DNA of 64,000 bases, taken from positions 2,949 through 66,948 of the forward strand of contig CAMVCW010000004.1 in NCBI GenBank assembly GCA_947166125.1, read 5' to 3'. The DNA is from an uncultured Candidatus Saccharibacteria bacterium. Lineage in GTDB: Bacteria > Patescibacteriota > Saccharimonadia > Saccharimonadales > Saccharimonadaceae. The notes beneath the pieces are model-generated. The model was not told the origin of the DNA. It worked only from the letters and a program-made list of their open reading frames with translations, and ran no database searches. The position numbers and the translations under genes are program-made. Positions 3,015 through 53,378 of this stretch are shown here, in pieces; the stretch's first letter is position 1; every line of letters begins with the position of its first letter.

Positions 3015-3176
3015 ATGTTTATTTTAATTTTTCTAATTTTAATTATTCATACTGTTTTATTATTTATGATTTATTCAGAAATAGAAAAAACTTTGGATAA
3101 TACTTTTGAAAATGGAAATAATATTATGCAAATTAAAAGATATTTTGTAAGATTTTCTAGAAAGGGAAAGAAATGA
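3015..3176 (+). CDS. Minor coat protein-like, 53 aa
   Basis: N-terminal TM helix (MFILIFLILIIHTVLLFMIY), basic tail; SD AGGAG; ATGA overlap with the next gene. Confidence 0.65.
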   Translation: MFILIFLILIIHTVLLFMIYSEIEKTLDNTFENGNNIMQIKRYFVRFSRKGKK

Positions 3177-3868
3177 AATGTTTCCGGTGCTTCTCTTTTG
3201 TTTTGTTTGCTTTATTGGGTGTCTTTTTTGGCTCATTTATTATAAATCAAAATGATATTTATGCTCTTGATAATATAACTTATACCATTAATTCTTCTAA
3301 TTATACTAATGTTCCGTATTATTTTTGTGATAACTCTGATTCTTCTCTTCCTGATTGTTCTGGTTATAATTATTTAGTTGCTTATAGTAACGATTCGTGT
3401 TCTTTTAGTAATCCTGCTTCCATTTTTTATTTTCAATTTTATAATTCTATGATTACTACCAATCCTACTTTTAATCCTCAATTTTATAGTATGCAATTAT
3501 TTGAATTTCCTGGTTATTATGGTTCTCCTTCTCGTTTAGGCTTTTCTGGTTCTTCTTATGTTTCTTCTTTTTTGACTAATGATTGTGAAATTTCTGTTAT
3601 TGTTTCTGAAAATAATCCGTATGTTTCAGGTATAACTCCATCAGGTTCAATAGAGTTGACAGAAAATGGTACTTATGATGTAAGTCAATATGCCGAAGCT
3701 GTAGTTAATGTACCAGAAACAGATTGTCCGCCTGGTACTGGAGGGAATTATCATGAAGATTTAGTAGCCATTAACAATTCTATTATGATTTGTGCTGCTA
3801 CTTGTCTTGTGATTTATTTCTTCTATTGTATATATCGTATGATAATTAAAAATTCGGGGGTAAAATAA
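3173..3868 (+). CDS. Prophage exported virion/adsorption protein
   Basis: Signal peptide, Ser/Asn-rich body, phage-type motif ELTENGTYDVSQYAEAVVNVP, C-terminal TM helix. Confidence 0.65.
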   Translation: MKCFRCFSFVLFALLGVFFGSFIINQNDIYALDNITYTINSSNYTNVPYYFCDNSDSSLPDCSGYNYLVAYSNDSCSFSNPASIFYFQFYNSMITTNPTFNPQFYSMQLFEFPGYYGSPSRLGFSGSSYVSSFLTNDCEISVIVSENNPYVSGITPSGSIELTENGTYDVSQYAEAVVNVPETDCPPGTGGNYHEDLVAINNSIMICAATCLVIYFFYCIYRMIIKNSGVK

Positions 3869-3869
3869 A

Positions 3870-5321
3870 ATGAAAGGAAAAATATGTGGTCTATTATCAG
3901 CCTTATTCATCACGCTTGGGTTGTCATTAAGTATAAATTTAAACGATTCTAGTGCTTTAAAATATTCTTATAATGCTTTTCCTGTTATTCAAAAATCTTT
4001 AACTGCTGGTTCTTCTTCTATTCCTAATGCTAGTTCTAGCACTTTTTCTGTTACTTTTGATTCTACTTTGACTTCTGATGTTTCTGCCCCTGAAGGTGTT
4101 ATGGAATATAAGCAACTTCAAAATGGTAATTGTGTTAATTTAGGTACTAGTGGTATTTTTGGTCTTGTTTCTATTCAAGATCGTAATCAAATTAATATTA
4201 ATTCTGGTTCTGGTCGTGCAGGTCATTATCGTTATTTTAATGTTCGTCCTCCTTTATCTTCTGATTATTCTAGTGTGTCTTCTTTTCCTACTGATTTTAT
4301 GAACTGTCATAATTCTGGTACTTATGACTATGATTCTATTTATGGTGGTACTATTGATATATCTACTGGTGATTATGATAAATTTATAGATATTTCTCGT
4401 GTTTATGGTGGTTTTCGTTCTGGTGGTCTTAAAATGATTCAAGTTCCTTTAGATATTTCACAATCTAATGTTGGTACTATTTCTTCTGGTACTCCACTTT
4501 CTTGGACTTTTGAAATATTTTCTCTTTCTCCTTTACAAAATATTTCTTCTTCTCCTGATATTAATTTAGATTTAACATATTTTCCTAATAATTTTGATAC
4601 TTGGTCTGGTACTGTTGCTGATTTTGGTTCTTCTCGTATTTCAGCTTCTGCTTCTTGTACTTATGATCCTAATCATGAATTTTTGAAAGTCAATGAAGAT
4701 TTAACTTTTTCTCACATGTATGGTTATAAGGTAGATTGTAGTTATACTGCTTCTACTGATATGTCTAATATTTTTGCTACTTTATTTATTAGTGGTGATT
4801 CTACCGTTAATCCTGTAAATATTTTTACTTTTTCTGATTATCTTTATTTTGGTTCATCTTATCTTGTTACTAATAATGATGATACTTATTCTGGTAAAAA
4901 TGCTAATGAGGAACCTACTGGTGATAATATTGAAAAAGCCCCTGGTTATTCTTCTCTTTATTGTGATAATGCTGCAACTTGTGATCCTCCTGGTGATGGT
5001 ATGTTTGGTCTTACTGAGTTATTTAATTTTACATTTATTAATCCTTTCGAACCTATTTTACATTTATTTACCGATAATGGTTCTTGTGTTCAAATACCTA
5101 CTATTGCTGGTATGATACATAGTGAAGAAACAGGGGTTTGTCCTTGGTTTGATTCTAATGTTCGCAATATTGTTACTCCCGTTCTTGGTCTTTCTTCTAT
5201 GATGTTGGTATTTGGTTTTGCTGTTAGATGGTTAGGTGCAAGGTCTGGTAATATGTTTGAAGATAGTTTTGAAGGAAGTTCTGGTGGTATATCTATTGGT
5301 ACTAAAGGAAGGAGTAAATAG
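3870..5321 (+). CDS. pIII-like adsorption protein
   Basis: 483 aa; signal peptide, S/T/G/D-rich ectodomain with Cys pairs, C-terminal TM anchor; sits before the pVI- and pI-like genes. Confidence 0.7.
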   Translation: MKGKICGLLSALFITLGLSLSINLNDSSALKYSYNAFPVIQKSLTAGSSSIPNASSSTFSVTFDSTLTSDVSAPEGVMEYKQLQNGNCVNLGTSGIFGLVSIQDRNQININSGSGRAGHYRYFNVRPPLSSDYSSVSSFPTDFMNCHNSGTYDYDSIYGGTIDISTGDYDKFIDISRVYGGFRSGGLKMIQVPLDISQSNVGTISSGTPLSWTFEIFSLSPLQNISSSPDINLDLTYFPNNFDTWSGTVADFGSSRISASASCTYDPNHEFLKVNEDLTFSHMYGYKVDCSYTASTDMSNIFATLFISGDSTVNPVNIFTFSDYLYFGSSYLVTNNDDTYSGKNANEEPTGDNIEKAPGYSSLYCDNAATCDPPGDGMFGLTELFNFTFINPFEPILHLFTDNGSCVQIPTIAGMIHSEETGVCPWFDSNVRNIVTPVLGLSSMMLVFGFAVRWLGARSGNMFEDSFEGSSGGISIGTKGRSK

Positions 5322-5593
5322 TGTTAGATACGGTATTTAATTTATTAAAAGTTACTGCTGTTGTTGCTGTTTCTGCTATTTTTATGGTTGCTATAATAAA
5401 CCTTGTTAATCTTATCAATTCTGTTTTATTTGGTAATATCATTGGTGAAATACTTGGTCTTGTATCTATGTATTTACCATTTAATGCTCTTGCTGTATTT
5501 GGTGCCATAGGTACTGCTACTATAGCTATTTTATCTTTCTTAATTGCCAAGAAAATATTTGATTTAACTTCTTGGAGTATTTCTTCTATTTAG
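5321..5593 (+). CDS. pVI-like hydrophobic minor coat protein
   Basis: 90 aa, almost entirely hydrophobic; canonical position between pIII and pI. Confidence 0.65.
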   Translation: MLDTVFNLLKVTAVVAVSAIFMVAIINLVNLINSVLFGNIIGEILGLVSMYLPFNALAVFGAIGTATIAILSFLIAKKIFDLTSWSISSI

Positions 5594-5623
5594 TTATAAT
5601 TTATTTATAATAAAGGAGATAAA

Positions 5624-5827
5624 ATGTTAGAAAATTTAGAACAGATTTATATTATCTTAATTGCTCTTAGTTTGTTTTTATTTATTTTGTTTATTTATTT
5701 AGTTTATTGTATTGCAGAGATTAAAAATCAATTGAAATCATTTGTTGATTTAGAATATAAAAAATATAAGGAGGATAATGTCAAGAACACAATCAGTAGT
5801 CAGCCTGGATCCGATAGACCGGAATAA
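5624..5827 (+). CDS. Single-TM protein preceding pI
   Basis: 67 aa, N-terminal TM helix; SD AAAGGAG. Confidence 0.6.
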   Translation: MLENLEQIYIILIALSLFLFILFIYLVYCIAEIKNQLKSFVDLEYKKYKEDNVKNTISSQPGSDRPE

Positions 5828-6464
5828 TAAACGACGTTCTGGTCCACTAGGTCGGTTTTTTAAAACTAAACATTATCATGGAAAGGGAATTAAAAAAACT
5901 GACCCTTTTGGCCATTATCTTTTTGTCGGTCGTCAACGTTCAGGTAAAACTGTAAGTGCTATTTGGTATTATGAATTTTTAAAAAAACGGTATGAAAAAC
6001 AAGGTAAAAAAGTAGTTTTATATAGTAATATGGGTTTTGGACAACCTGTCTTTAAAATGAATTTGTCCGCAATTATTAGAGAAGTAAAATTTGATAAAAA
6101 TGTTATATATATTTTTATTATAGACGAATTACAGAGTTATTTTCCAAAAGATACTAAAGACCAGACGACATTACGACTCATTGACGAGCTGACGGGTGAA
6201 TTTTCACAATTAGGTAAACGGCAGATCTATGTGCTTTCTACTGCTCAAATTTATGGCCGTGTAAATAAAAATCTCCGAGAACAATGTCTTTATATGGTGA
6301 ATTGCAGAAAATCTAAATTAACAAATCATGTAGTTAATGATTTTATAGATGGTGATGATATTTTGTGTGATGATTTAGGCCGTTGGAGCGGCGAACCGGT
6401 ACGCATTTTGGTTCACGGACTCCCTAGCACTAAATTTGACACGCACCGTATGATTACTGTTTAA
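5778..6464 (+). CDS. Zot/pI-like morphogenesis ATPase (no TM segment)
   Basis: Walker A GRQRSGKT, Walker B IFIIDELQ, downstream STAQ..R..K.LREQ pattern typical of pI; SD AAGGAGG. Confidence 0.85.
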   Translation: MSRTQSVVSLDPIDRNNKRRSGPLGRFFKTKHYHGKGIKKTDPFGHYLFVGRQRSGKTVSAIWYYEFLKKRYEKQGKKVVLYSNMGFGQPVFKMNLSAIIREVKFDKNVIYIFIIDELQSYFPKDTKDQTTLRLIDELTGEFSQLGKRQIYVLSTAQIYGRVNKNLREQCLYMVNCRKSKLTNHVVNDFIDGDDILCDDLGRWSGEPVRILVHGLPSTKFDTHRMITV

Positions 6465-6465
6465 T

Positions 6466-6589
6466 TTCTTTTTTGGCTTAACTGAATAAGAAAATTTCTT
6501 GCGGTTTCTGTCAAGGGCGGGCGAAGCCCGTTCATTTACCCTTGACGGAAATCCGCTGAAATTTTACCCTGTTAAGCGCCAAAAAAGAA
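6466..6589. other. Long nested hairpin (candidate single-strand origin or packaging signal)
   Basis: Nested stems ttcttttttggc..ttaac/gttaa..gccaaaaaagaa, tttctgtcaaggg/cccttgacggaaa, and a gggc-gaa-gccc tip. Confidence 0.55.
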
Positions 6590-6592
6590 AAA

Positions 6593-6656
6593 GTCAAAGT
6601 GGGCATTATATTATCCCTCTACTTGATAATATAATACATAAATTGCCCACTTTGAC
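6593..6656 (+). other. Rolling-circle double-strand origin candidate
   Basis: Stems gtcaaagtgggca/tgcccactttgac and attatattatc/gataatataat; ACTTGATA (6621-6628) at the tip matches the phiX174/pC194 CTTG|ATA nick consensus. Confidence 0.7.
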
Positions 6657-6695
6657 GTAATAGAATAATTATGTTATAATGTTAGGAGTGAGGTT

Positions 6696-7475
6696 ATGCA
6701 GGTACGGTATATTTCTAATATAACTAAGGAATATCCTGATATGATTAAGGTTGTTATTTATAAAGAACCCAAAACTTTTATAAGGTCTGACTTTACAAAA
6801 CGGAATAGGGAAGAAGTAGATGATGTTACTTATACTCCATCTATTTCTTCTCTTAATAGAACTAAAACACTTGTACGTGATTTAGTTCTCTGTAATGAAT
6901 TTGAATTATTTTGTACATTTACTTTTAATCCTGATAAAGTAGATTCGTTTAATTATATTAAGTGTTGGGGTAAAATGTCTCGTTGGCTTCATCATCAATC
7001 TGATCGTAGCAGGGAAGTAGGTAAAGAATTCAAATATTTAATTATTCCCGAAAAACATAAATCTGGCCGTTGGCATTTTCATGCCCTTATTTCTGGCTAT
7101 ATTGGCTCTCTAAGCCCATCTGGCTATAAGACTATTACACTTAGACCTATATATAATATAACTAGCTTTAGAAGCGGTTTCACGACTGCTGTAGGTATAG
7201 ATTCTAAAGAAGGTGTATCTAACTATATAACTAAATACATAACTAAAGATTTTATTAAGTCTTTTAATCAGCGTAGGTTTATGTGTTCACGTAATTTGGT
7301 TCGTCCAGTTAAAACTATTAATTCACCTATCTACAGAAATACATTACCTATTTTTAGAAGAAAAGTAGCAGAAAATAATGAAACTTTTGAATTTCTTATT
7401 GACAAAATTCAAGACATTTATAATAATGTTGATAAGGTTTATTATAGCCCTAACGTCGTACAATATGGATTTTAA
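6696..7475 (+). CDS. HUH rolling-circle replication initiator
   Basis: Motif I FCTFTF, motif II WHFHAL, motif III YITKYITK; own TGTTATAAT promoter and SD. Confidence 0.9.
   Translation: MQVRYISNITKEYPDMIKVVIYKEPKTFIRSDFTKRNREEVDDVTYTPSISSLNRTKTLVRDLVLCNEFELFCTFTFNPDKVDSFNYIKCWGKMSRWLHHQSDRSREVGKEFKYLIIPEKHKSGRWHFHALISGYIGSLSPSGYKTITLRPIYNITSFRSGFTTAVGIDSKEGVSNYITKYITKDFIKSFNQRRFMCSRNLVRPVKTINSPIYRNTLPIFRRKVAENNETFEFLIDKIQDIYNNVDKVYYSPNVVQYGF
7446..7473. repeat. Right prophage junction
   Basis: AGCCCTAACGT-CGTACA-ATATGGATTTT; 18/19 identity with the left junction over 7451-7469 vs 1743-1761. Confidence 0.7.
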
Positions 7476-8104: not shown

Positions 8105-9934
8105 CTACTCAATAGTCCAGGGGGAGGTGGCGGTGCCAGTACCGCCGGTGACTTGGATGTGATGCATTAAAGAAATCACAGGCCGCACGCCACCATTATT
8201 AGATGAGTAATTATATCCAACACTCCCATCCGTATTTGTAGAATTTATAAAAACACTACCGTCTGTACCTCGTCGCCAGTATGGAGTCATTGTCCAAATC
8301 CTTGAGTTGGAAAAAATATAAAATCTGGTAGAAAAAGTAAGTTCATCGGACGTTAAAAGAGCAATTGGCTTATTGAGCTGCTTATTACCGCCGCTGGCAG
8401 AATTAGTGGAATATAAATCTACGACATTCCGCGAACAAGTAAGCGACGGCGAAGAAACGAGTCCAATTTGATTGCGCAACATCGACCCAAAACGGTATTG
8501 CACTACACCAGACATCGTATCGTTAACATATGGAGCAACAATGCTATCTTGGCTAGTAACGACTGTAGATTCGTTGTAAATACTTCTATCATTGCAATAC
8601 CCAGCGCTAAACTCTAGCCTACTTTCATAACTACTCATCACATTAGGAAACCAAGTATTCTCTAGATAGTCTTTAATGGTAGAATCTGTGCTGTTGCCAG
8701 AATAGTTTTCATTTGTGCCAAATAACACACCATATGAAGTATTCCCATTAGTAGTCTTATAATCACTGTTAAAAGTATAGCCTGTCGTAACAATACTAAA
8801 ACTACCCGTGCCAACATTATTAAAGGCTTTAGTAGTAGTTCGCGCATTCGCTGTTGCATTCGCACAACTCCCAGCTGTAGTAACACCATACATGCCATTG
8901 TAGATCATCTTCACTCCACCAGAGCCAGTGGTTCTCACAATACGCCAACAAGTACCATTGGATAATTTTACGTAGTTTGGCCAAGCATCAGCCTTACCAT
9001 CTGAACCGTAAGTGCCTAGTCCTTCATTTGTGTCTAATATGCCACGGTAAAAATAAATGCTATAGTCATTTGAAGCATCGCTGGCGGCACCGTATACGGT
9101 TGGATCATAAGTATAGACGCCAGAATTAGCTTGGGTGATAGTGTCGGAGAGTTTGACGTTGTTTTCTGCTAGGGTGCCTTTAGTCATATATCTTACTGTA
9201 TCGTATAGCGTAGGTGGCTCTGGATTTGATACGGCATAGAAATTAATAATATTGGTATATTCTCCACTTGGCTGAGTATTGCTAGAATTAGCTGCTATCT
9301 TAAAGTCTATAGTTTTACTATTTGCTGGATTATAGGTAGAGATTAGTTCTGCAGAATGTTCTGTGTCTGAATATACTGGTAAACCACTATATGATTGCCA
9401 AGTAGTGCCATTGTCTTTTGAATAACTATAACCCCAAGTATTAGTGGGGAGATTGTCTTTGTTTGTAATATTAGCACCGTAGGCTAAACTAGCAAATGTT
9501 GCATTGGTGGTAGGAGTAGAAGTGGCGGAAGAAGCGTGAACTAGGTTGGTAGTATTGTAGTTAGTAGTATTACTGCCTACATTAGCCGTGAGGTTATAAC
9601 CATACGCCGTGTTGGCAGCTATGTTTACTGTAATAGTATTACTTTCTACAGCTGTACCTGGTGTAAGATTTGAAATAGTTAAATTATCCGGTGAGATACT
9701 TAGTGAGATGGTAGGGTTAAAAGTAAAACCAATACTAACGTCAGTAGAATAACTTAAAGCGGAAGTATCTAAAACGTTAGATAAACACAAAGTTATGTTT
9801 GCGAAACTTAATATTATGATTGTTAAGCTTAATGTTATGATTTCTTTCTTCCCTGTAAAATGGCTAGTTATGTTCTTTAAATTCAATGTTATGTTTCTAA
9901 CATTTGAACTTATGTTATTTTGATATTGCCGCAT
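8105..9934 (-). CDS. Surface protein: type-alpha N-terminal domain plus DUF6273-like C-terminal domain
   Basis: N-terminal TM/signal; N-domain similar to 51659-53122; C-domain motifs CWRIVRTTGSGGVKMIY, IALLTSDE, GGVRPVISL. Confidence 0.65.
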   Translation of the reverse strand: MRQYQNNISSNVRNITLNLKNITSHFTGKKEIITLSLTIIILSFANITLCLSNVLDTSALSYSTDVSIGFTFNPTISLSISPDNLTISNLTPGTAVESNTITVNIAANTAYGYNLTANVGSNTTNYNTTNLVHASSATSTPTTNATFASLAYGANITNKDNLPTNTWGYSYSKDNGTTWQSYSGLPVYSDTEHSAELISTYNPANSKTIDFKIAANSSNTQPSGEYTNIINFYAVSNPEPPTLYDTVRYMTKGTLAENNVKLSDTITQANSGVYTYDPTVYGAASDASNDYSIYFYRGILDTNEGLGTYGSDGKADAWPNYVKLSNGTCWRIVRTTGSGGVKMIYNGMYGVTTAGSCANATANARTTTKAFNNVGTGSFSIVTTGYTFNSDYKTTNGNTSYGVLFGTNENYSGNSTDSTIKDYLENTWFPNVMSSYESRLEFSAGYCNDRSIYNESTVVTSQDSIVAPYVNDTMSGVVQYRFGSMLRNQIGLVSSPSLTCSRNVVDLYSTNSASGGNKQLNKPIALLTSDELTFSTRFYIFSNSRIWTMTPYWRRGTDGSVFINSTNTDGSVGYNYSSNNGGVRPVISLMHHIQVTGGTGTATSPWTIE

Positions 9935-9974
9935 CCTGTTTTACCTTTTGCCTCGCTTAAAGTTTTATCTCGGT

Positions 9975-10172
9975 TGCGGTGCCATCTTTGTAATATATGA
10001 AAAGGCGTATACAAAAAATGGCACCGCAAGGGGTGCAATAACAAGTCATATACCAGCTTACGCCTACACAGAACTTGGTCCTTACGGTACCATTTAAACT
10101 GTGTAAACGCATATTTAAAAAATGCGGCTGGTTTTTCACCATATGTCTTGTTATTGCATTTTTAGTATAGCA
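9975..10172 (-). ncRNA. Structured 5' leader, copy 1 (undescribed motif)
   Basis: -10 TGCTATACT 10164-10172; P1 10141-10158/10034-10051; box A 10080-10095; box B 10016-10031; box C 9975-9985. Confidence 0.8.
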
Positions 10173-20021: not shown

Positions 20022-21653
20022 TTATTTCGCCACACATCGCACAGATTTTCCAGCACTCCTGTAGCCATACGTGCCGCCATAGGGAGTTTCTGGACTGATT
20101 TTACCTAAACTGAAAGATAAGTTATAAGCGGTATTTCCACTATTAATGGTGCTAGAGTAATAAAAGCCATTAGAAGAATCTTCAAGAACTGAGTTATTAT
20201 ATATGTAACCAGGTCTTGCGAAATATAAAGGTGCTTCAGTTAATGCAATACCAGTATCGTACAAGTTGTTATTGTATAAAAAATTCAATCTAGTAAACTC
20301 ATTAGTAGAACCAAGCGTAGATCCAGACTGGTTAGATATAGTAGGTAATCTCCATCCTTTAGGACATATAGAGTTCTTGGGATTCTTAGATATATCACTT
20401 AATGTATTTTGTGTTAGTGAAGAAGAATTATTAGAGGCTATAGCTGCAGTCCAGTTATAGTAATTGCCTAGTGAGAAATGTCCTGTTTCTGTACTATCCG
20501 TCTTGTTAGCGGTATATGATGCAGTATTACTATTCTGCCAACCGGTAATAGGGCCTGTATTCTGAAAACCTATCGTAGTAGCACTGCCAGCTGGAGTATA
20601 ATATGTTATTCCATTGTCTTCTGTATATCCATCATTATATTCCGCGTATTGTCCAGTGCTAGAATCGTAGACCACATTTAAGTCTGTAGTTTGGGAATTT
20701 AGTGTAGTGTTGGCTGCTATATCAAAATCTAGATTTTGCGTCATCCAACAATGTCCATCTTTAAGTTTGGTTACCCAGTAGAGTTTATTGTCCCTAATGT
20801 CTACTAATTGGGTAGAGGTCCTTTCGTCGTTATTTGATACAGAATTACATATGTCACTAGTCATATCTTGCATAGCAAAATATGATCCATTTTCATCGCT
20901 ATAAACTTTTTGCTTACCGGCTAACCAGAAAGCAGCGTCTATGTCGTTCATAGTTGAAGCATTACTATTTGGATGTGTCAGCATATACTTCACCTGCCCA
21001 TTATAAGTACCTGCATATTGTGATGATGATGTATATACGGCATAGGTAGTAGTAAAAGATGAACCTTTAATCATATCAGTGGCTCTTGCTGGAAGTGATG
21101 CTACTTTAGTCCACCTATCTGGGACTATGCCGTATATACCATCATAGTCTAATGTAATAGTAGGTGGAGTAAGTGATGGATCATCTTTTAGGTTATTTAG
21201 ACTCATAGCCCAGTTAGATGTATTACCTGACTCTGCTGTTCCTGATACTATATTAAAGTTAGAACTTTCTGCATTAACTAGTCTATTATTACCTTCTTCA
21301 TTATTACTATACCCTACTGCATATACACTATACCCATTACCATCATTACATAGTGTAGTAATGGTAGTCTTTCCTATACCATTAGTATAAGTACCATTAA
21401 TCAATTCTGCTGTATGACTACTATCTACTACACTACTTAATGTACAGGATGATGAGATAGAAAAGGATAAACTATCTGTGGAGGAAGTAGAGCCACTACT
21501 AGAACTAGCAGCAGAGCTATGAAATGATAAATGAGATAAAACAACACCAGAAACCACAAGAAGAGGAATAGAAACTAACAATACATTACGGAAAGCATAG
21601 TAGAAGAAATCTATTCTACTACTCATTAAAGATTGTTTTACTTTGTGGCCCAT
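20022..21653 (-). CDS. Surface protein, type-beta N-domain plus FISUMP (Fib_succ_major)-like C-domain
   Basis: GHCWMTQNL, GNYYNWTAA, SICPKGWRLP, SVRC motifs; N-terminal TM helix. Confidence 0.8.
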   Translation of the reverse strand: MGHKVKQSLMSSRIDFFYYAFRNVLLVSIPLLVVSGVVLSHLSFHSSAASSSSGSTSSTDSLSFSISSSCTLSSVVDSSHTAELINGTYTNGIGKTTITTLCNDGNGYSVYAVGYSNNEEGNNRLVNAESSNFNIVSGTAESGNTSNWAMSLNNLKDDPSLTPPTITLDYDGIYGIVPDRWTKVASLPARATDMIKGSSFTTTYAVYTSSSQYAGTYNGQVKYMLTHPNSNASTMNDIDAAFWLAGKQKVYSDENGSYFAMQDMTSDICNSVSNNDERTSTQLVDIRDNKLYWVTKLKDGHCWMTQNLDFDIAANTTLNSQTTDLNVVYDSSTGQYAEYNDGYTEDNGITYYTPAGSATTIGFQNTGPITGWQNSNTASYTANKTDSTETGHFSLGNYYNWTAAIASNNSSSLTQNTLSDISKNPKNSICPKGWRLPTISNQSGSTLGSTNEFTRLNFLYNNNLYDTGIALTEAPLYFARPGYIYNNSVLEDSSNGFYYSSTINSGNTAYNLSFSLGKISPETPYGGTYGYRSAGKSVRCVAK

Positions 21654-21694
21654 CTTTTACCTCATTTATATATATGATTACTACTACTCCCCCA

Positions 21695-21886
21695 TGTGGT
21701 GCCACTATATTAATGGGGATTAACAAAAATGGCACCGCAAGGGGTGCAAAACACTATTATCGTCCATAGCAAGTATGCAACGCCAATAGGTACCTTGCGG
21801 CGCCATTTCTTTAGCGTTGCTTAATGAGTTACATTAAAATGTGCTACGGAACGTCGATAAAAGTGTTTTGCTCTTTCATTATAGCA
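21695..21886 (-). ncRNA. Structured 5' leader, copy 2
   Basis: -10 TGCTATAAT 21878-21886; P1 21855-21871/21746-21762; box A 21793-21808; box B 21727-21742; box C 21695-21705. Confidence 0.8.
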
Positions 21887-26374: not shown

Positions 26375-28090
26375 TCACCGGGCGAGACAGCGGATAGACA
26401 AACCAGCCATTTTTTGTAAACTTTTATTGGCTAAATTGACCCCACCCGTGTAAAGATGCAAAAAATAGGCTGAAGAATAATCAAGAGTATTGGACCAGTA
26501 GTAACCGCCCCTGTATAGTGTTCCAGCGTTTATGCCACCGGGTAGTACGAAATATAGAGGCTCAGAACGCAGGGCATTAAAACCATTTGATTGATAGTTT
26601 ACTGGATTAGTACCATTAGATGGTGACGTAACTATATCGTATCCATAATCACGGTAGAGTAATCTACCAAATTCATTATATTCATTGTCTGTAGTAGAAG
26701 CATTAGGTAGTCTCCAGCCTTTAGGACAAATAGAGCTGGCAGCTCTGGTGCTGTCTACTGAAATGCTAGCAGAATTATTAGACGCTATAGCTGCAGTCCA
26801 GTTATAGTAATTACCAGCATGATAATGTTTACATTCTCCCTCTGTATGACCTGCGGTAATACAGGCAGACAACGAGGTGTATTTTATATCATCTGACGTA
26901 GAGTTTGATGTATAGTAATATACATCACCTGGATCTGCAGAATATGGATAGTTATTTTGATTAGACCAACCAGGAACAGAAGTACCGTTTACTGGTAGGT
27001 TATATTTACCATTAGTGGTGTCTGGTGTCCAGGTGGCATTAGCATCAAAGTTATTTGTGTCCCAGCCTAGGTCTGTATCATTATGGGTATAGGTTCTGGT
27101 GGCGTCTATCTCTAAATCCAAGTTTTGTGTCATCCAACAATGGCCATCTGCTAACTTTGCTACCCAGTAAAGCCTACTATCTCGCAAATCTACTAGTTGT
27201 GTAGCGGTAACCTCCCCGCTGTTACCTACAAGACTACATATTTGAGAGTCCATATCCTGCATAGCATAATATGAATTGCCGCCCTCTTCATAGGCTTTTA
27301 TTTTACCCGCCATAGCGAAGGTAGTGTCTAAGTCTGGAATAGTGTTATTATTACTATTTGGATGCACTATAACATATTTTACTTTACCATTATAAGTACC
27401 TGCAGGTTGATATGAATTAGCATAAATCTGGTAAGTAGTGTTTAGGTATGAACCTGAAGCATCACTGTCTGTTATCATACTAGTACCTGATGTTCTTTTA
27501 GCTACTTGAGTATAGACATTTGGTATAGCACTATAGTTATCAAAGCCATTAATGATAGTAGGTGGAGTGGTAGGTACTGAGCCTCCTGTAGTTGGGTCTA
27601 TACCAGTACCAGTACCGGCAGTTAGTTTCATAGCCCAGGAAGAAGGATTGGTTTGAGCAGAGTCATCATATACTCCAGTATGGATATTATAGCTTTCATT
27701 TACTGTATTAATTAAGTCTGTGTTACCATCCGTGTCTCCACTACTACCTACGGCATAGATACTATAGCCATTATTGTCATTACAAAAGGCACTGAGTTTA
27801 GTATTGCCTACATTATCATCCTTTTGGCCACCATGGAGGCTGGTTTCATGTGCTTCTGTAACTACGGCATTTACTGTACAGGAAGTAGATAAGACTAATT
27901 GAATATTGTCTGTACCACTACTTATTTCTGCAGACGAATGAGGAATAGTGAAAACAAAGATAGAAAAGATAAGAAGAGGAACAGAAACCAACAATACATT
28001 GCGGAAAGCATAGTAGAAGAAATCTGTTCTACATGACACAGTTTTATGCACCTTTACTTTATGATTAGCTTTAGTGGTTCTATGGCCCAT
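26375..28090 (-). CDS. Surface protein, type-beta N-domain plus FISUMP-like C-domain
   Basis: GHCWMTQNL, GNYYNWTAA, SICPKGWRLP, SIRC; N-terminus shares RxDFFYYAFRNVLLVS with 20022-21653. Confidence 0.8.
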   Translation of the reverse strand: MGHRTTKANHKVKVHKTVSCRTDFFYYAFRNVLLVSVPLLIFSIFVFTIPHSSAEISSGTDNIQLVLSTSCTVNAVVTEAHETSLHGGQKDDNVGNTKLSAFCNDNNGYSIYAVGSSGDTDGNTDLINTVNESYNIHTGVYDDSAQTNPSSWAMKLTAGTGTGIDPTTGGSVPTTPPTIINGFDNYSAIPNVYTQVAKRTSGTSMITDSDASGSYLNTTYQIYANSYQPAGTYNGKVKYVIVHPNSNNNTIPDLDTTFAMAGKIKAYEEGGNSYYAMQDMDSQICSLVGNSGEVTATQLVDLRDSRLYWVAKLADGHCWMTQNLDLEIDATRTYTHNDTDLGWDTNNFDANATWTPDTTNGKYNLPVNGTSVPGWSNQNNYPYSADPGDVYYYTSNSTSDDIKYTSLSACITAGHTEGECKHYHAGNYYNWTAAIASNNSASISVDSTRAASSICPKGWRLPNASTTDNEYNEFGRLLYRDYGYDIVTSPSNGTNPVNYQSNGFNALRSEPLYFVLPGGINAGTLYRGGYYWSNTLDYSSAYFLHLYTGGVNLANKSLQKMAGLSIRCLAR

Positions 28091-28131
28091 CTTTTACCTC
28101 ACTTATATATATGATTACTACTATTCCCCCA

Positions 28132-28321
28132 TGTGGTGCCACTATATTAATGGGGATTAACAAAAATGGCACCGCAAGGGGTGCTATAACCTAATCAAAG
28201 TAATCGTGCGAACACATGTACTCGACGGTAACCCTGCGGTGCCGTTTGTAAGTACATATACTCGCCTATAAAATAGGCACGATTTTATTAATGATTAAGT
28301 TATAGCATCTTCATTATAGCA
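28132..28321 (-). ncRNA. Structured 5' leader, copy 3
   Basis: -10 TGCTATAAT 28313-28321; P1 28292-28307/28182-28197; box A 28232-28247; box B 28164-28179; box C 28132-28142. Confidence 0.8.
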
Positions 28322-28399
28322 CGAATAAAAAATATATTTCAAGGGCTTTTTTCTTCCCTGTTATTTTACGGATTATTCATTCTGTGATATAATAGGCTT

Positions 28400-51658: not shown

Positions 51659-53122
51659 TTAGCGGGCGAGGCAGCGGACTGGAAAACCATAAGATTTGCG
51701 ATCCGCATTAGTCGTACTAAAAATATTCCCATAAAATATAGGTGCATAGGCATTAGAAACGCCAGAAGGTGTACCAAGCCAGTACCAATTATATCCTGCA
51801 TATGCGATCGCTCCATTAAATAAACCGGCTCGCGTAAAATAGATAGGACTAATCCTTAGTTTTGACGTATTAGGCCCGTAAAGGTCATAAGTTTCTGCTA
51901 ACGTAGCGAAATCATTTACTGTTTTAGCCATTGGCAATTTCCAATTGCTCGAGCATACAGAATTAGGCGCATTGTTACTGGTTAGTGTGCTAGTATTGTT
52001 ATTTGCTACAACTGCAGACCAATTGTAATAATTTCCTATGTGATAATGAGTGCAGTCGTCGTGCCCCGCATTGATACATTCTTGTAACGAGGTGTATGTT
52101 GTATCGTTTGCGGTGGAATTTGATGTATATATGTATTTATCTCCAGGATTAGCAGAATACGGCTCAGTATTACTATCAACCCAACCATCCACTGTAGTGC
52201 CAGTAAAGTTTATGGTAGAGTGACCTTCGGTTGGTTTCCAGGTGGCAGTTTCGTCACCTGTAGTCCAACCTAAGTCTGTATCGTAATGGGTATAGGTTCT
52301 AGTATCGTCTATGTCCAAATCTAAGTTCTGTGTCATCCAACAATTATTGTCTGCTAGTTTTGCTATCCAGTAGACTTTATCGTCTCGTATATCTATGACT
52401 TGGAGCTGGGATCCTATATCTTCAGTCTCTTCGCAGATGGTATGCGTCATATCTTGCATTTTGTAGTAGCCATGGTAGAGTTCTTTACCTTCTTTAGTAT
52501 AGGCATCAGCTAGGGTGATGGGAGTTGGTTTAGTAATTGCAGTGAAGTTAATGATATTAGTATAGGTACCGGATGGTTGAGTACTACCTGCTTTAGCTGC
52601 TATTTTGAAGTTAATAGTATCATTGCTTGAACCAGAGTTTTTCTTTAATCTAGTGGGATTATTTGTAGTGTATAATGGTAAACCATTATAGTTAGACCAA
52701 GTAGTACCATGATCTAGTGAGTAGGTATAGCCCCAGGTATTGTCTGTAGTGAGAGCAGAGAGATTGGCAGTGGTGGGGATGCTGGAGAATACATCCGTAT
52801 TGTCAGTATGAGTGAAATTGGTGTTATTGTATGTTTCGTTTCCTACTGTAGCATATAGATTATAGCCATAGACGTTGTTAGTAGCTACATTAACTAAGAT
52901 TTCATTACTAGTGTCTGTGGTGCTGGGAGAGAGATTAGGGATGGTGAGATTATTTGGAGATAGACTAATGGAAAGAGTGGGATTGAAGGTGAAGTTGATG
53001 CCTACATCGCTTTGGTAATTTAATGCAGAAGCGCTGGGAACAGAAACTAAAACTATTGCTAAGCTGAAAAGCATTAATAGTGTGTAGACAATGTATAGCT
53101 TTTTGAATATGATTTGCCGCAT
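51659..53122 (-). CDS. Surface protein, type-alpha N-domain plus FISUMP-like C-domain
   Basis: NNCWMTQNL, GNYYNWSA, SVCSSNWKLP, FPVRC; N-domain similar to 8105-9934. Confidence 0.8.
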   Translation of the reverse strand: MRQIIFKKLYIVYTLLMLFSLAIVLVSVPSASALNYQSDVGINFTFNPTLSISLSPNNLTIPNLSPSTTDTSNEILVNVATNNVYGYNLYATVGNETYNNTNFTHTDNTDVFSSIPTTANLSALTTDNTWGYTYSLDHGTTWSNYNGLPLYTTNNPTRLKKNSGSSNDTINFKIAAKAGSTQPSGTYTNIINFTAITKPTPITLADAYTKEGKELYHGYYKMQDMTHTICEETEDIGSQLQVIDIRDDKVYWIAKLADNNCWMTQNLDLDIDDTRTYTHYDTDLGWTTGDETATWKPTEGHSTINFTGTTVDGWVDSNTEPYSANPGDKYIYTSNSTANDTTYTSLQECINAGHDDCTHYHIGNYYNWSAVVANNNTSTLTSNNAPNSVCSSNWKLPMAKTVNDFATLAETYDLYGPNTSKLRISPIYFTRAGLFNGAIAYAGYNWYWLGTPSGVSNAYAPIFYGNIFSTTNADRKSYGFPVRCLAR

Positions 53123-53164
53123 CTTACCTCGCTTATTCCCTTTGGTTAATAGGTTTACTTAGGA

Positions 53165-53378
53165 TGCGGTGCCATCTTTGTAATATATGAAAAGGCGTAT
53201 ACAAAAATGGCACCGCAAGGTGCTTTATCATCACTATTACTAACCAAAGCTTATTCGCCTAACTTAGAACATTGATGCCTTACGGCGCCATTGATAATTC
53301 TAAGTAAATAATGGCGGACAAGCTTTTAAAAAACTTTGGTCTTGTTAATAATAATGATAAAGCAATTTAATTATAGCA
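53165..53378 (-). ncRNA. Structured 5' leader, copy 4
   Basis: -10 TGCTATAAT 53370-53378; P1 53346-53364/53221-53239; box A 53278-53292; box B 53205-53220; box C 53165-53175. Confidence 0.8.

Follow-up and report, generated by a model that had tools for sequence, protein, structure and literature searches.

Surface-Protein Genes and Their Leaders

The window analysed here, a stretch of 64,000 nucleotides from a contig of an uncultured Candidatus Saccharibacteria bacterium, holds exactly four members of one family of FISUMP-type surface-protein genes. The family is a multi-copy one, its products being secreted or surface proteins, and two of the encoded proteins pass the NCBIfam cut-off for the FISUMP domain TIGR02145. 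The genes are:

8105 to 9934, minus strand: gene 1, 609 amino acids, with an N-terminal domain common with gene 4
20022 to 21653, minus strand: gene 2, 543 amino acids, with a FISUMP/TIGR02145 domain
26375 to 28090, minus strand: gene 3, 571 amino acids, with a FISUMP/TIGR02145 domain
51659 to 53122, minus strand: gene 4, 487 amino acids, a paralog of genes 1 to 3

The initial annotation had placed a leader element upstream of each of them, and all four elements were found (4/4). From the 5′ end their parts come in the order promoter, stem I with box A at its apex, box B with a U-tract, and box C, the last of these at a median distance of 43 nt from the start codon. Each of the four genes has a TGnTATAAT promoter, with stem I beginning 4–6 nt further on:

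10164 to 10172, minus strand: extended -10 box of copy 1, TGCTATACT
21878 to 21886, minus strand: extended -10 box of copy 2, TGCTATAAT
28313 to 28342, minus strand: promoter of copy 3, TTGAAA-18-TGcTATAAT, with 11 of 12 consensus matches
28313 to 28321, minus strand: -10 box of copy 3, TGCTATAAT
53370 to 53378, minus strand: extended -10 box of copy 4, TGCTATAAT

The -10 boxes had been recognised correctly in all four copies, while their distance to the ATG, given as 240–260 nt, proved to be 222–247 nt. Among the 100 distinct copies of the leader assembled from related genomes (see below), 73 have a TG-extended -10 box, and the gap between the -10 hexamer and the first paired base of P1, the outer part of stem I, is 4–6 nt in 72. 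The predicted 5′ end of the transcript would therefore lie at the stem or flush with it, in agreement with the initial proposal that transcription begins there. The sequencing runs that were checked for this strain had word shares of at most 0.36, none at useful identity. Contigs from bovine metatranscriptomes cover only the conserved hairpin II region of the leader and run also into the promoter, and for this reason they are uninformative on transcript ends.

A Covarying Structure on the Coding Strand

Folded as single-stranded RNA, each leader consists of stem I, a long interrupted hairpin, followed immediately by a second hairpin (hairpin II). Stem I, made up of P1, P2 and P3, is found at:

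10034 to 10158, minus strand: stem I of copy 1, 125 nt, -48.6 kcal/mol
21746 to 21871, minus strand: stem I of copy 2, 126 nt, -54.2 kcal/mol, with box A at 21793 to 21807
28182 to 28307, minus strand: stem I of copy 3, 126 nt, -51.3 kcal/mol, with box A at 28232 to 28246
53221 to 53364, minus strand: stem I of copy 4, 144 nt, -54.3 kcal/mol, with box A at 53278 to 53292

The whole-leader folds of the four copies have z scores of -6.0, -8.3, -8.2 and -9.1, and none of 200 dinucleotide shuffles was as stable. The main helix of stem I is about 40 bp long (interquartile range 37–43). Its 3′ arm is almost continuous, the extra nucleotides residing mostly in bulges of the 5′ arm (2183 nt vs 297 nt). 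The length of P1 correlates negatively with that of the remaining stem (r = -0.53), indicating that total stem length is the conserved quantity. Two details of the first description need amending. P3, given as 6–8 bp, has 10–15 bp, and the small side hairpin appears in about 45% of the minimum-energy folds; in the others a U-rich UUUUUAU motif is bulged out on the 5′ side.

The pairing in stem I is supported by covariation. RNAalifold recovers P1 from a plain MAFFT alignment of 73 copies that contained no structural information, and compensatory double changes occur at all 15 P1 pairs, in up to 34 of the 73 sequences per pair. Standard pairs fill 93.8% of the P1 cells, as opposed to 77.0% when the partners are shuffled (0 of 500 shuffles reach the observed value) and only 30–45% when the partners are slid by 1–3 columns; the covariation score is 0.477, against 0.04–0.11 in the slid controls. 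The same conclusion can be reached without any alignment, given that the two arms from the same copy pair at -45.8 ± 6.8 kcal/mol and arms from different copies at -18.1 ± 5.3 kcal/mol, an advantage of cognate arms that is seen separately for the outer (P1) and inner (P3) parts. What had been inferred from four copies, namely that the stem sequences are unrelated and yet the pairing is kept, thus extends to a much larger set.

The strand on which this structure is maintained can also be discerned. The 4715 predicted pairs include 492 G-U pairs and only 33 single A·C mismatches, so that the bias towards G-U on the transcribed strand, first counted by eye, is upheld on 100 copies. In 93 of these copies the sense RNA folds more stably than its reverse complement, the means being -50.8 and -41.9 kcal/mol, respectively. 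Together, this asymmetry and the difference in stability make selection on double-stranded DNA, or on the other strand, unlikely. The leader is a promoter-proximal, strand-specific, covarying RNA structure, and there is very little doubt that the folded leaders of about 200 bases in front of the four surface-protein genes exist, are structured as described and constitute a genuine, undescribed RNA family.

Three Boxes, Two Possible Pairings

The second hairpin and the boxes that conserve their sequence lie at the following positions:

10080 to 10094, minus strand: box A of copy 1, AAUGGUACCGUAAGG, in the apical loop of stem I
10014 to 10033, minus strand: box B and U-tract of copy 1, CCCCUUGCGGUGCCAUUUUU, also terminator-like
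9974 to 10029, minus strand: hairpin II of copy 1 (box B paired with box C), -26.1 kcal/mol, with box C, GAUGGCACCGCAA, at 9974 to 9986
21694 to 21744, minus strand: hairpin II of copy 2, -28.1 kcal/mol, with box B and U-tract at 21725 to 21744 and box C at 21694 to 21706
28131 to 28181, minus strand: hairpin II of copy 3, with box B and U-tract at 28162 to 28181 and box C at 28131 to 28143
28169 to 28184, minus strand: terminator-like match of copy 3
53164 to 53222, minus strand: hairpin II of copy 4, -29.1 kcal/mol, with box B and U-tract at 53203 to 53222 and box C at 53164 to 53176

Stem I leads directly into box B (CCUUGCGGUGCC, then AUUUUU), a run of five or six U residues comes next, and box C is located 20–30 nt further downstream. 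Both box A and box C have box B as their reverse complement. Boxes B and C form the two arms of hairpin II, which has 17–19 bp, and the default fold of the leader is stem I plus this B:C hairpin. According to the energy model, the alternative duplex between boxes A and B would be equally stable (-26.6 to -30.9 kcal/mol for A:B vs -26.1 to -29.1 kcal/mol for B:C in the four window copies). The boxes are conserved as the initial annotation had described them; the complementarity of box B to both A and C is absent from it and represents the most important correction to that description.

Why is the sequence of box A conserved? Invariant unpaired nucleotides, of which the aptamer core of a metabolite riboswitch would have many, are confined in the leader to box A, box B and the UUUUUAU motif. 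The consensus of box A reads A-A-(U/C)-G-G-C-R-Y-C-G-Y-A-A-G-G. A local mini-hairpin is poorly supported beyond CC-GNRA-GG, that is, two C-G pairs closing a GNRA loop, and positions 4 and 13 form a standard pair in just 44 of 100 copies; local structure is therefore no explanation of the conservation. The box A bases that face C residues of box B never or almost never vary, and positions 3, 4 and 5 show transitions only, retaining a G-U or U-G wobble with box B. The double-wobble form GGCGUC does not occur, although the frequencies of the single changes predict about 8 copies of it. As judged from these patterns of variation, pairing to box B would explain the conservation of box A, with two caveats: position 0 is C in 30% of the copies, which would mismatch box B, and the GNRA hairpin accounts just as well for positions 5 and 9. 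Since boxes B and C were fixed by the search pattern, these copies do not allow a covariation test for the A:B pairing.

Chance-level matches aside, the boxes in the window are confined to the leaders. A mismatch-tolerant pattern search of the window returned 18 box matches, 12 of which are the leader boxes and the remainder at chance level. A covariance model built from 73 copies detected neither variants of box B nor further copies of the leader in 766 kb of the leader loci or in the window, and a metagenome scan for CCCTTGCGGVGCCATTTTT gave 63 matches, all of them unrelated high-GC hairpins or coding sequence. A leader peptide was considered and rejected, as neither the short (A/G)UG-NNN-UAA frames at the 5′ end nor the AUG-GCA-CCG-UAA of box A is conserved, the latter having ACG in 30% of the copies.

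Box C and the Start Codon

Box C is complementary not only to box B. In the two largest gene subfamilies it is also complementary to the region of the start codon:

9927 to 9937, minus strand: start-codon region of copy 1, GGAUGCGG, complementary to the 3′ part of box C, CCGCAACC
21645 to 21655, minus strand: start-codon region of copy 2, AUGGGCCAC, complementary to the core of box C (GUGGC-A-CCA)
28082 to 28092, minus strand: start-codon region of copy 3, AUGGGCCAU, of the MGHRT type, complementary to the core of box C
53116 to 53125, minus strand: start-codon region of copy 4 (GAUGCGG), complementary to CCGCAUC of box C

The register of this pairing differs between the two subfamilies. In genes beginning with Met-Arg (MR), CCGCAUCC or CCGCAACC of box C pairs with GGAUGCGG, at best with -18.7 and on average with -11.1 kcal/mol, while in those beginning with Met-Gly-His (MG) GUGGC-A-CCA pairs with UGG-GCCAC at -13.4 kcal/mol, the average being -12.3 kcal/mol. 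Shuffled start regions reach about -5 ± 2.3 kcal/mol with box C. The start codon is followed by CGG in 18 of 20 MR genes; CGG makes up 8.8% of the Arg codons in the genome. When box B is forbidden to pair, box C of MR-type leaders engages the start region in the minimum-energy fold. The three boxes and the start region are thus four mutually complementary segments, as far as box C and the start region are concerned in the two largest subfamilies. The pairing of box C with the start is weak or absent in the MK (Met-Lys, Nanosyncoccus) subfamily and in insert-bearing leaders, and it cannot be the universal output of the leader.

A High-Copy Leader of One Gene Family

The leader is not confined to the window. 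A scan for the B...C pattern, in which each species was represented by one genome, gave at least 99 stretches, and among the matches listed all but four chance ones belong to Saccharibacteria or Nanosyncoccus; the hosts among the matches listed are Candidatus Saccharibacteria MAGs from sheep, goat and cattle gut and Candidatus Nanosyncoccus MAGs. After removal of duplicates at least 100 distinct copies remain in these MAGs, and the -10 box, stem I, the U-rich motif, box A, box B and hairpin II are present in all 100 distinct copies analysed. Single MAGs carry at least 19, at least 14 and at least 12 copies. A large number of copies are found at the ends of contigs, which is typical of repeats at which assemblies break. 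The loci lie scattered between housekeeping genes, for example gyrBA, recJ, priA and def. Mosaic leaders such as L016 and L051 point to recombination or gene conversion among paralogs, and gene conversion may be partly responsible for the boxes being identical from one paralog to the next. No leader matches were found on viral contigs (IMG/VR), and a phage origin of the leader was rejected on this basis.

In other Saccharibacteria genomes the leader recurs before the same gene family. With the exception of one orphan copy, all 68 downstream ORFs of at least 60 aa fall into one BLAST cluster, that is, one protein family, and homologs of the downstream protein in other metagenome contigs have the same leader upstream. 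The orphan (L054) lies upstream of rpsL, has no surface-protein gene and is without a U-tract. Three distant homologs of the protein (L168, L169 and L170) have no leader, one of them looking leaderless, and they could not be used to extend the alignment. The leader family is specific to the main surface-protein family of one Saccharibacteria clade, in which it is present in high copy number. The initial annotation had proposed a cis-regulatory RNA family for surface proteins: an undescribed, covarying family of 5′ leaders stands, whereas the leader is not universal in the wider protein family, and the word ‘regulatory’ is an inference in the absence of data on transcript ends, structure probing or expression.

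Comparison with Known RNA Elements

As had been expected, Rfam offers no relative of the leader. At gathering score, Rfam 15 identifies only the 16S rRNA and three tRNAs in the whole window, with no T-box or riboswitch among the matches, and the leaders alone, searched at E ≤ 10, give only miRNA-like hairpin noise with E > 0.2, far below the gathering scores. No description of the leader was found in the literature on Saccharibacteria RNA motifs or on the box sequences themselves. The leader meets the general criteria of a structured cis-acting mRNA leader in its position between promoter and ribosome-binding site, its restriction to the coding strand and its covariation across homologous genes. 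This general kind of element is already known; the RNA family itself is new.

The T-box shares with the leader a long stem I with conserved apical elements, and box A (UGGYRCCGYAAGG) is superficially T-box-like and pairs with a downstream strand that precedes a run of U residues. However, the leader is without a specifier loop and is followed by FISUMP-type surface-protein genes, not amino-acid genes, and RF00230 has no match at E ≤ 10, so that a T-box was rejected.

In its inferred mechanism the leader would work most like the expression platform of a classical attenuator or riboswitch. As in trp-type leaders and in translational sequestrator/anti-sequestrator helices, segment 2 can pair with segment 1 or 3, and segment 3 with segment 4; the alternatives are equally stable by prediction, segment 2 is succeeded by a U-tract and segment 4 contains the start codon. 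Differently to those systems, the leader has no conserved leader peptide and no recognisable aptamer core, its segment 1 is located at the apex of a 40-bp stem, such that the 1:2 pairing would be a long-range pseudoknot, and there is no Rfam match.

The E. coli ompA 5′ UTR and the Lactobacillus slpA S-layer leader are long, structured, stabilising 5′ UTRs of abundant envelope proteins. The common features are a long leader before a surface-protein gene and a stem at the very 5′ end, in our case a predicted one. The Saccharibacteria leader is much larger, contains conserved and mutually complementary boxes and occurs on as many as about 20 paralogs in a genome, every one of which has a stem sequence of its own, and there is no sequence or Rfam relationship.

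Two further comparisons were rejected. REP/BIME elements, MITEs and integron attC sites do not fit: the copies are restricted to the interval from a promoter to the gene start in a single gene family, they form no arrays, and their G-U bias is strand-specific. Nor does the A:B duplex mimic helix 45 of 16S rRNA, the 3′ end of the 16S rRNA in the window (CAUCGGUACG-AGAA-CGUGUCGAUG) being unlike A:B.

A Possible Translational Switch and Its Alternatives

How could four mutually complementary segments be used? The favoured reading, put forward tentatively and with the mechanism entirely inferred, is that the leader is a cis-acting translational switch of four boxes, in which A:B together with C:start is set against B:C and the 5′ stem protects the leader. 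The segments would then act like regions 1 to 4 of a classical attenuator, but on translation. With boxes B and C paired, the start codon would be free and the gene translated; with box B captured by loop A, the released box C would pair with the start codon and translation would be off. The choice would probably be made during transcription, as box B emerges when box C is still to be synthesised, and the U-tract behind box B may cause the polymerase to pause. A factor as yet unidentified could tip the balance by binding or occluding loop A. With or without a switch, hairpin II and the stem flush with the 5′ end should protect these abundant mRNAs from decay from the 5′ end.

The weakest point of the four-box switch is its geometry. 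With stem I intact, the A:B pairing would be a pseudoknot that reaches from the apex to the base of a stem of about 40 bp, and it would need a sharp fold-back at the bulges on the 5′ side, for which there is no direct evidence. Helix lengths give no clear support for such a fold-back: a geometry in which the length of P1 matches that of P2 plus P3 was considered and rejected, the negative correlation between P1 and the rest of the stem reflecting only the conservation of total length.

It is possible, if somewhat unlikely, that the leader is mainly an element for the stabilisation or processing of mRNA, whose flush stem blocks 5′-end-dependent decay and yields long-lived surface-protein mRNAs. 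The long helices would be RNase III substrates and hairpin II would then block a 5′-exonuclease, although cleavage is untested, and the boxes would be kept for recognition by a nuclease or another protein, or by gene conversion. Such a role would suit the flush position of P1 at the predicted 5′ end, the high stability of both stem I, with its roughly 40 bp, and the 17–19 bp of hairpin II, and the strength of the promoters; the ompA and S-layer 5′ UTRs provide a precedent, and the high depth of the conserved part of the leader in the bovine metatranscriptome contigs adds weak evidence. A stabiliser needs, however, neither an apical box of 12–16 nt that is exactly complementary to box B, nor A:B and B:C duplexes of equal stability, nor complementarity between box C and the start codon.

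Alternatively, the decision may concern transcription instead of translation. Box B folded on itself would form, with the U-tract, an intrinsic terminator or a pause site, the base of P1 (GUGC:GCAC) or box A would compete with this self-fold, and leader RNAs of about 150 nt would be produced unless the polymerase reads through. Box B with its U-tract was flagged as terminator-like in both copies scanned (copies 1 and 3), with 5 bp, 4 of them G-C, a 6-nt loop and then CAUUUUU, and the five U residues are invariant even where hairpin II can dispense with them. Near-identical hairpins, GGCCCC-UUGC-GGGGCC-AUUUUU, stand 3′ of coding sequence in unrelated bacteria, where they are read as intrinsic terminators. 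Their sequence logic is shared by box B with the U-tract and also by A:B with its A- and U-tracts, which looks like a terminator split in two; in the leader, though, the arms contributed by boxes A and B are about 45 nt apart, with the intervening nucleotides paired elsewhere. An attenuator of this kind is unlikely. The self-hairpin of box B (GCACC-CCUUGC-GGUGC) has only 4–5 bp and -6.7 kcal/mol and is weaker still in the GACACC variants. Moreover, box C lies past the U-tract and cannot affect termination, yet it is conserved as much as box B, and the orphan copy upstream of rpsL lacks the U-tract.

To an equally limited degree, boxes A and C might be twin binding sites for a family-wide regulator acting in trans, either a protein or a small RNA, which would co-ordinate some 20 paralogs, perhaps with only some of them expressed at once, while box B merely masks box C. 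Over about 16 nt, with an A-rich 5′ flank included, boxes A and C hardly differ, the boxes are invariant over at least 19 paralogs per genome and between genera, and the local mini-hairpin does not account for the conservation of box A. Against this, neither the window nor 766 kb of loci yielded an orphan RNA copy with the required complementarity, the leaders have no candidate protein gene linked to them, their neighbours being unrelated housekeeping genes, and the variation in box A, restricted to transitions compatible with wobble pairs, is as expected from pairing to box B.

Finally, an element acting at the DNA level (a recombination or inversion site, a folded site resembling attC, a MITE or a set of repressor operators) can hardly be entertained: boxes A and C are direct repeats with box B as an inverted repeat, the mosaic leaders suggest recombination between paralogs and the copies at contig ends appear repeat-like, but the asymmetry between G-U and A·C and the difference in stability between sense and antisense indicate an RNA of the coding strand, the element has a fixed place between promoter and ribosome-binding site in one gene family, neither the rest of the window nor viral contigs contain copies, and spacers of 20–60 bp are too short for invertible segments.

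Implications for Saccharibacteria

Saccharibacteria are ultrasmall epibionts, and their attachment to and interaction with host bacteria depend on their surface. To our knowledge, hardly any information exists on how genes are regulated in the Candidate Phyla Radiation. In the window, one leader RNA precedes all four genes of the largest surface-protein family, and one genome of about 1 Mb has at least 19 copies, which would rank the leader among the most abundant cis-acting RNA elements per genome known. Its absence from Rfam means that annotation pipelines leave these gaps of 200–250 bp unexplained. For studies of RNA structure evolution, about 100 natural ‘compensatory mutants’ of a 40-bp stem are now available.

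A bolder version of the translational switch can be imagined, although it is decidedly improbable. The competition between A:B, as a loop-to-tail pseudoknot, and B:C would be a new class of kinetic switch, gating translation of the entire set of some 20 variable surface proteins of an epibiotic CPR bacterium, and each paralog would have its own probability of being on or off, tuned by a stem I that is unique to it and evolves fast. If this were true, the surface could be diversified or switched by RNA, without DNA rearrangement. Whichever way it works, the leader offers a direct experimental handle on the control and variation of the cell surface in Saccharibacteria.

Additional modules and variation within the leader

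Some of the leaders carry a distinct, conserved module, about 150 nt long, between hairpin II (box B paired with box C) and the ribosome-binding site, and a G+C-rich insert occupies the same interval at L001. Here and below, L-numbers denote loci from other metagenome contigs.

L010:236-400 (also L013, L023, L032, L097 and L099): conserved inserted module, about 150 nt
L001:9830-9965: G+C-rich insert (about 140 nt) after hairpin II and before the ribosome-binding site

The L010-group module is closed by the stem GCAUAAUUCAUUAAUGUU...AACAUUAAUGAAUUAUGC, inside which lie three hairpins; its fold has a z-score of -7.0, and no match to the module was found in Rfam. Module-bearing leaders have about 192 nt between box C and the start codon. 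The L001 insert, of a kind present in one leader, lies in a region that is otherwise A+T-rich, with the repeat CTAGCGGG...CCCGCTAG on either side; it has the appearance of a small insertion, either mobile or structured.

Smaller differences affect the U-tract that follows box B and the 5' end of P1, the outermost helix of stem I.

L002:9895-9915 versus L004:4421-4442, and window 10014-10020: U-tract length polymorphism
Window 10150-10160 and many other loci: two-codon frame at the 5' end of P1

Copies of one locus recovered from different samples, identical in all else, have a U-tract of either five or six T (six in window copy 1). P1 frequently opens with (A/G)UG-NNN-UAA, e.g. AUGCAAUAA or GUGCAAUAA, which places a frame of two codons at the point where the transcript is predicted to start. 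Not every copy has it: GAG, ACG and GGG variants also occur.

Orphan leader, leaderless-looking homolog and a plus-strand ORF block

L054:2748-2925: orphan leader
L169:1270-1420: leaderless-looking distant homolog
Window 3173-7475, plus strand: ORF block

The L054 leader retains the promoter, stem I and boxes A, B and C, and lacks both the U-tract and the surface-protein gene. A second promoter follows it, with rpsL 183 nt downstream, and the 5' arm of P1 is repeated in the sequence 3' of hairpin II. This orphan could be a small RNA in its own right, or a remnant. The more distant homolog at L169 has no leader; judged from sequence, its mRNA looks leaderless, because the ATG lies 6 nt after a TGCTATAAT box. 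Its coding region also contains, near the start, a (CT)n repeat of about 16 units, which could be a slipped-strand phase-variation tract. Within the plus-strand block of the window, the ORF at 6696-7475 has a match in REP_ORF2-G2P (PF23343, E = 1.8e-12), a family of replication-associated proteins. The block may be a small ssDNA phage or plasmid-like element that became integrated.

Contig ends and mosaic leaders

Among the matches listed, many leader copies in loci L006-L104 lie 1-140 bp from the end of a MAG contig. Hairpin II and the N-terminal coding region, both conserved, therefore seem to be a major reason why assemblies of these genomes break, and copy numbers are thus lower bounds.

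Mosaic leaders were found in close relatives.

L016:7564-7763 versus window 53160-53370 (copy 4): mosaic leader at L016
L051:59-246 versus window 28127-28312 (copy 3): mosaic leader at L051

The L016 leader shares its P1 and P2 arms with copy 4 and differs in P3; its hairpin II is of type 2 and its gene of the Met-Gly-His type. At L051, stem I is that of copy 3, and the loop of hairpin II differs. The mosaic composition of these two leaders suggests, from comparison of the sequences, that paralogous leaders may undergo recombination or gene conversion at the conserved boxes.
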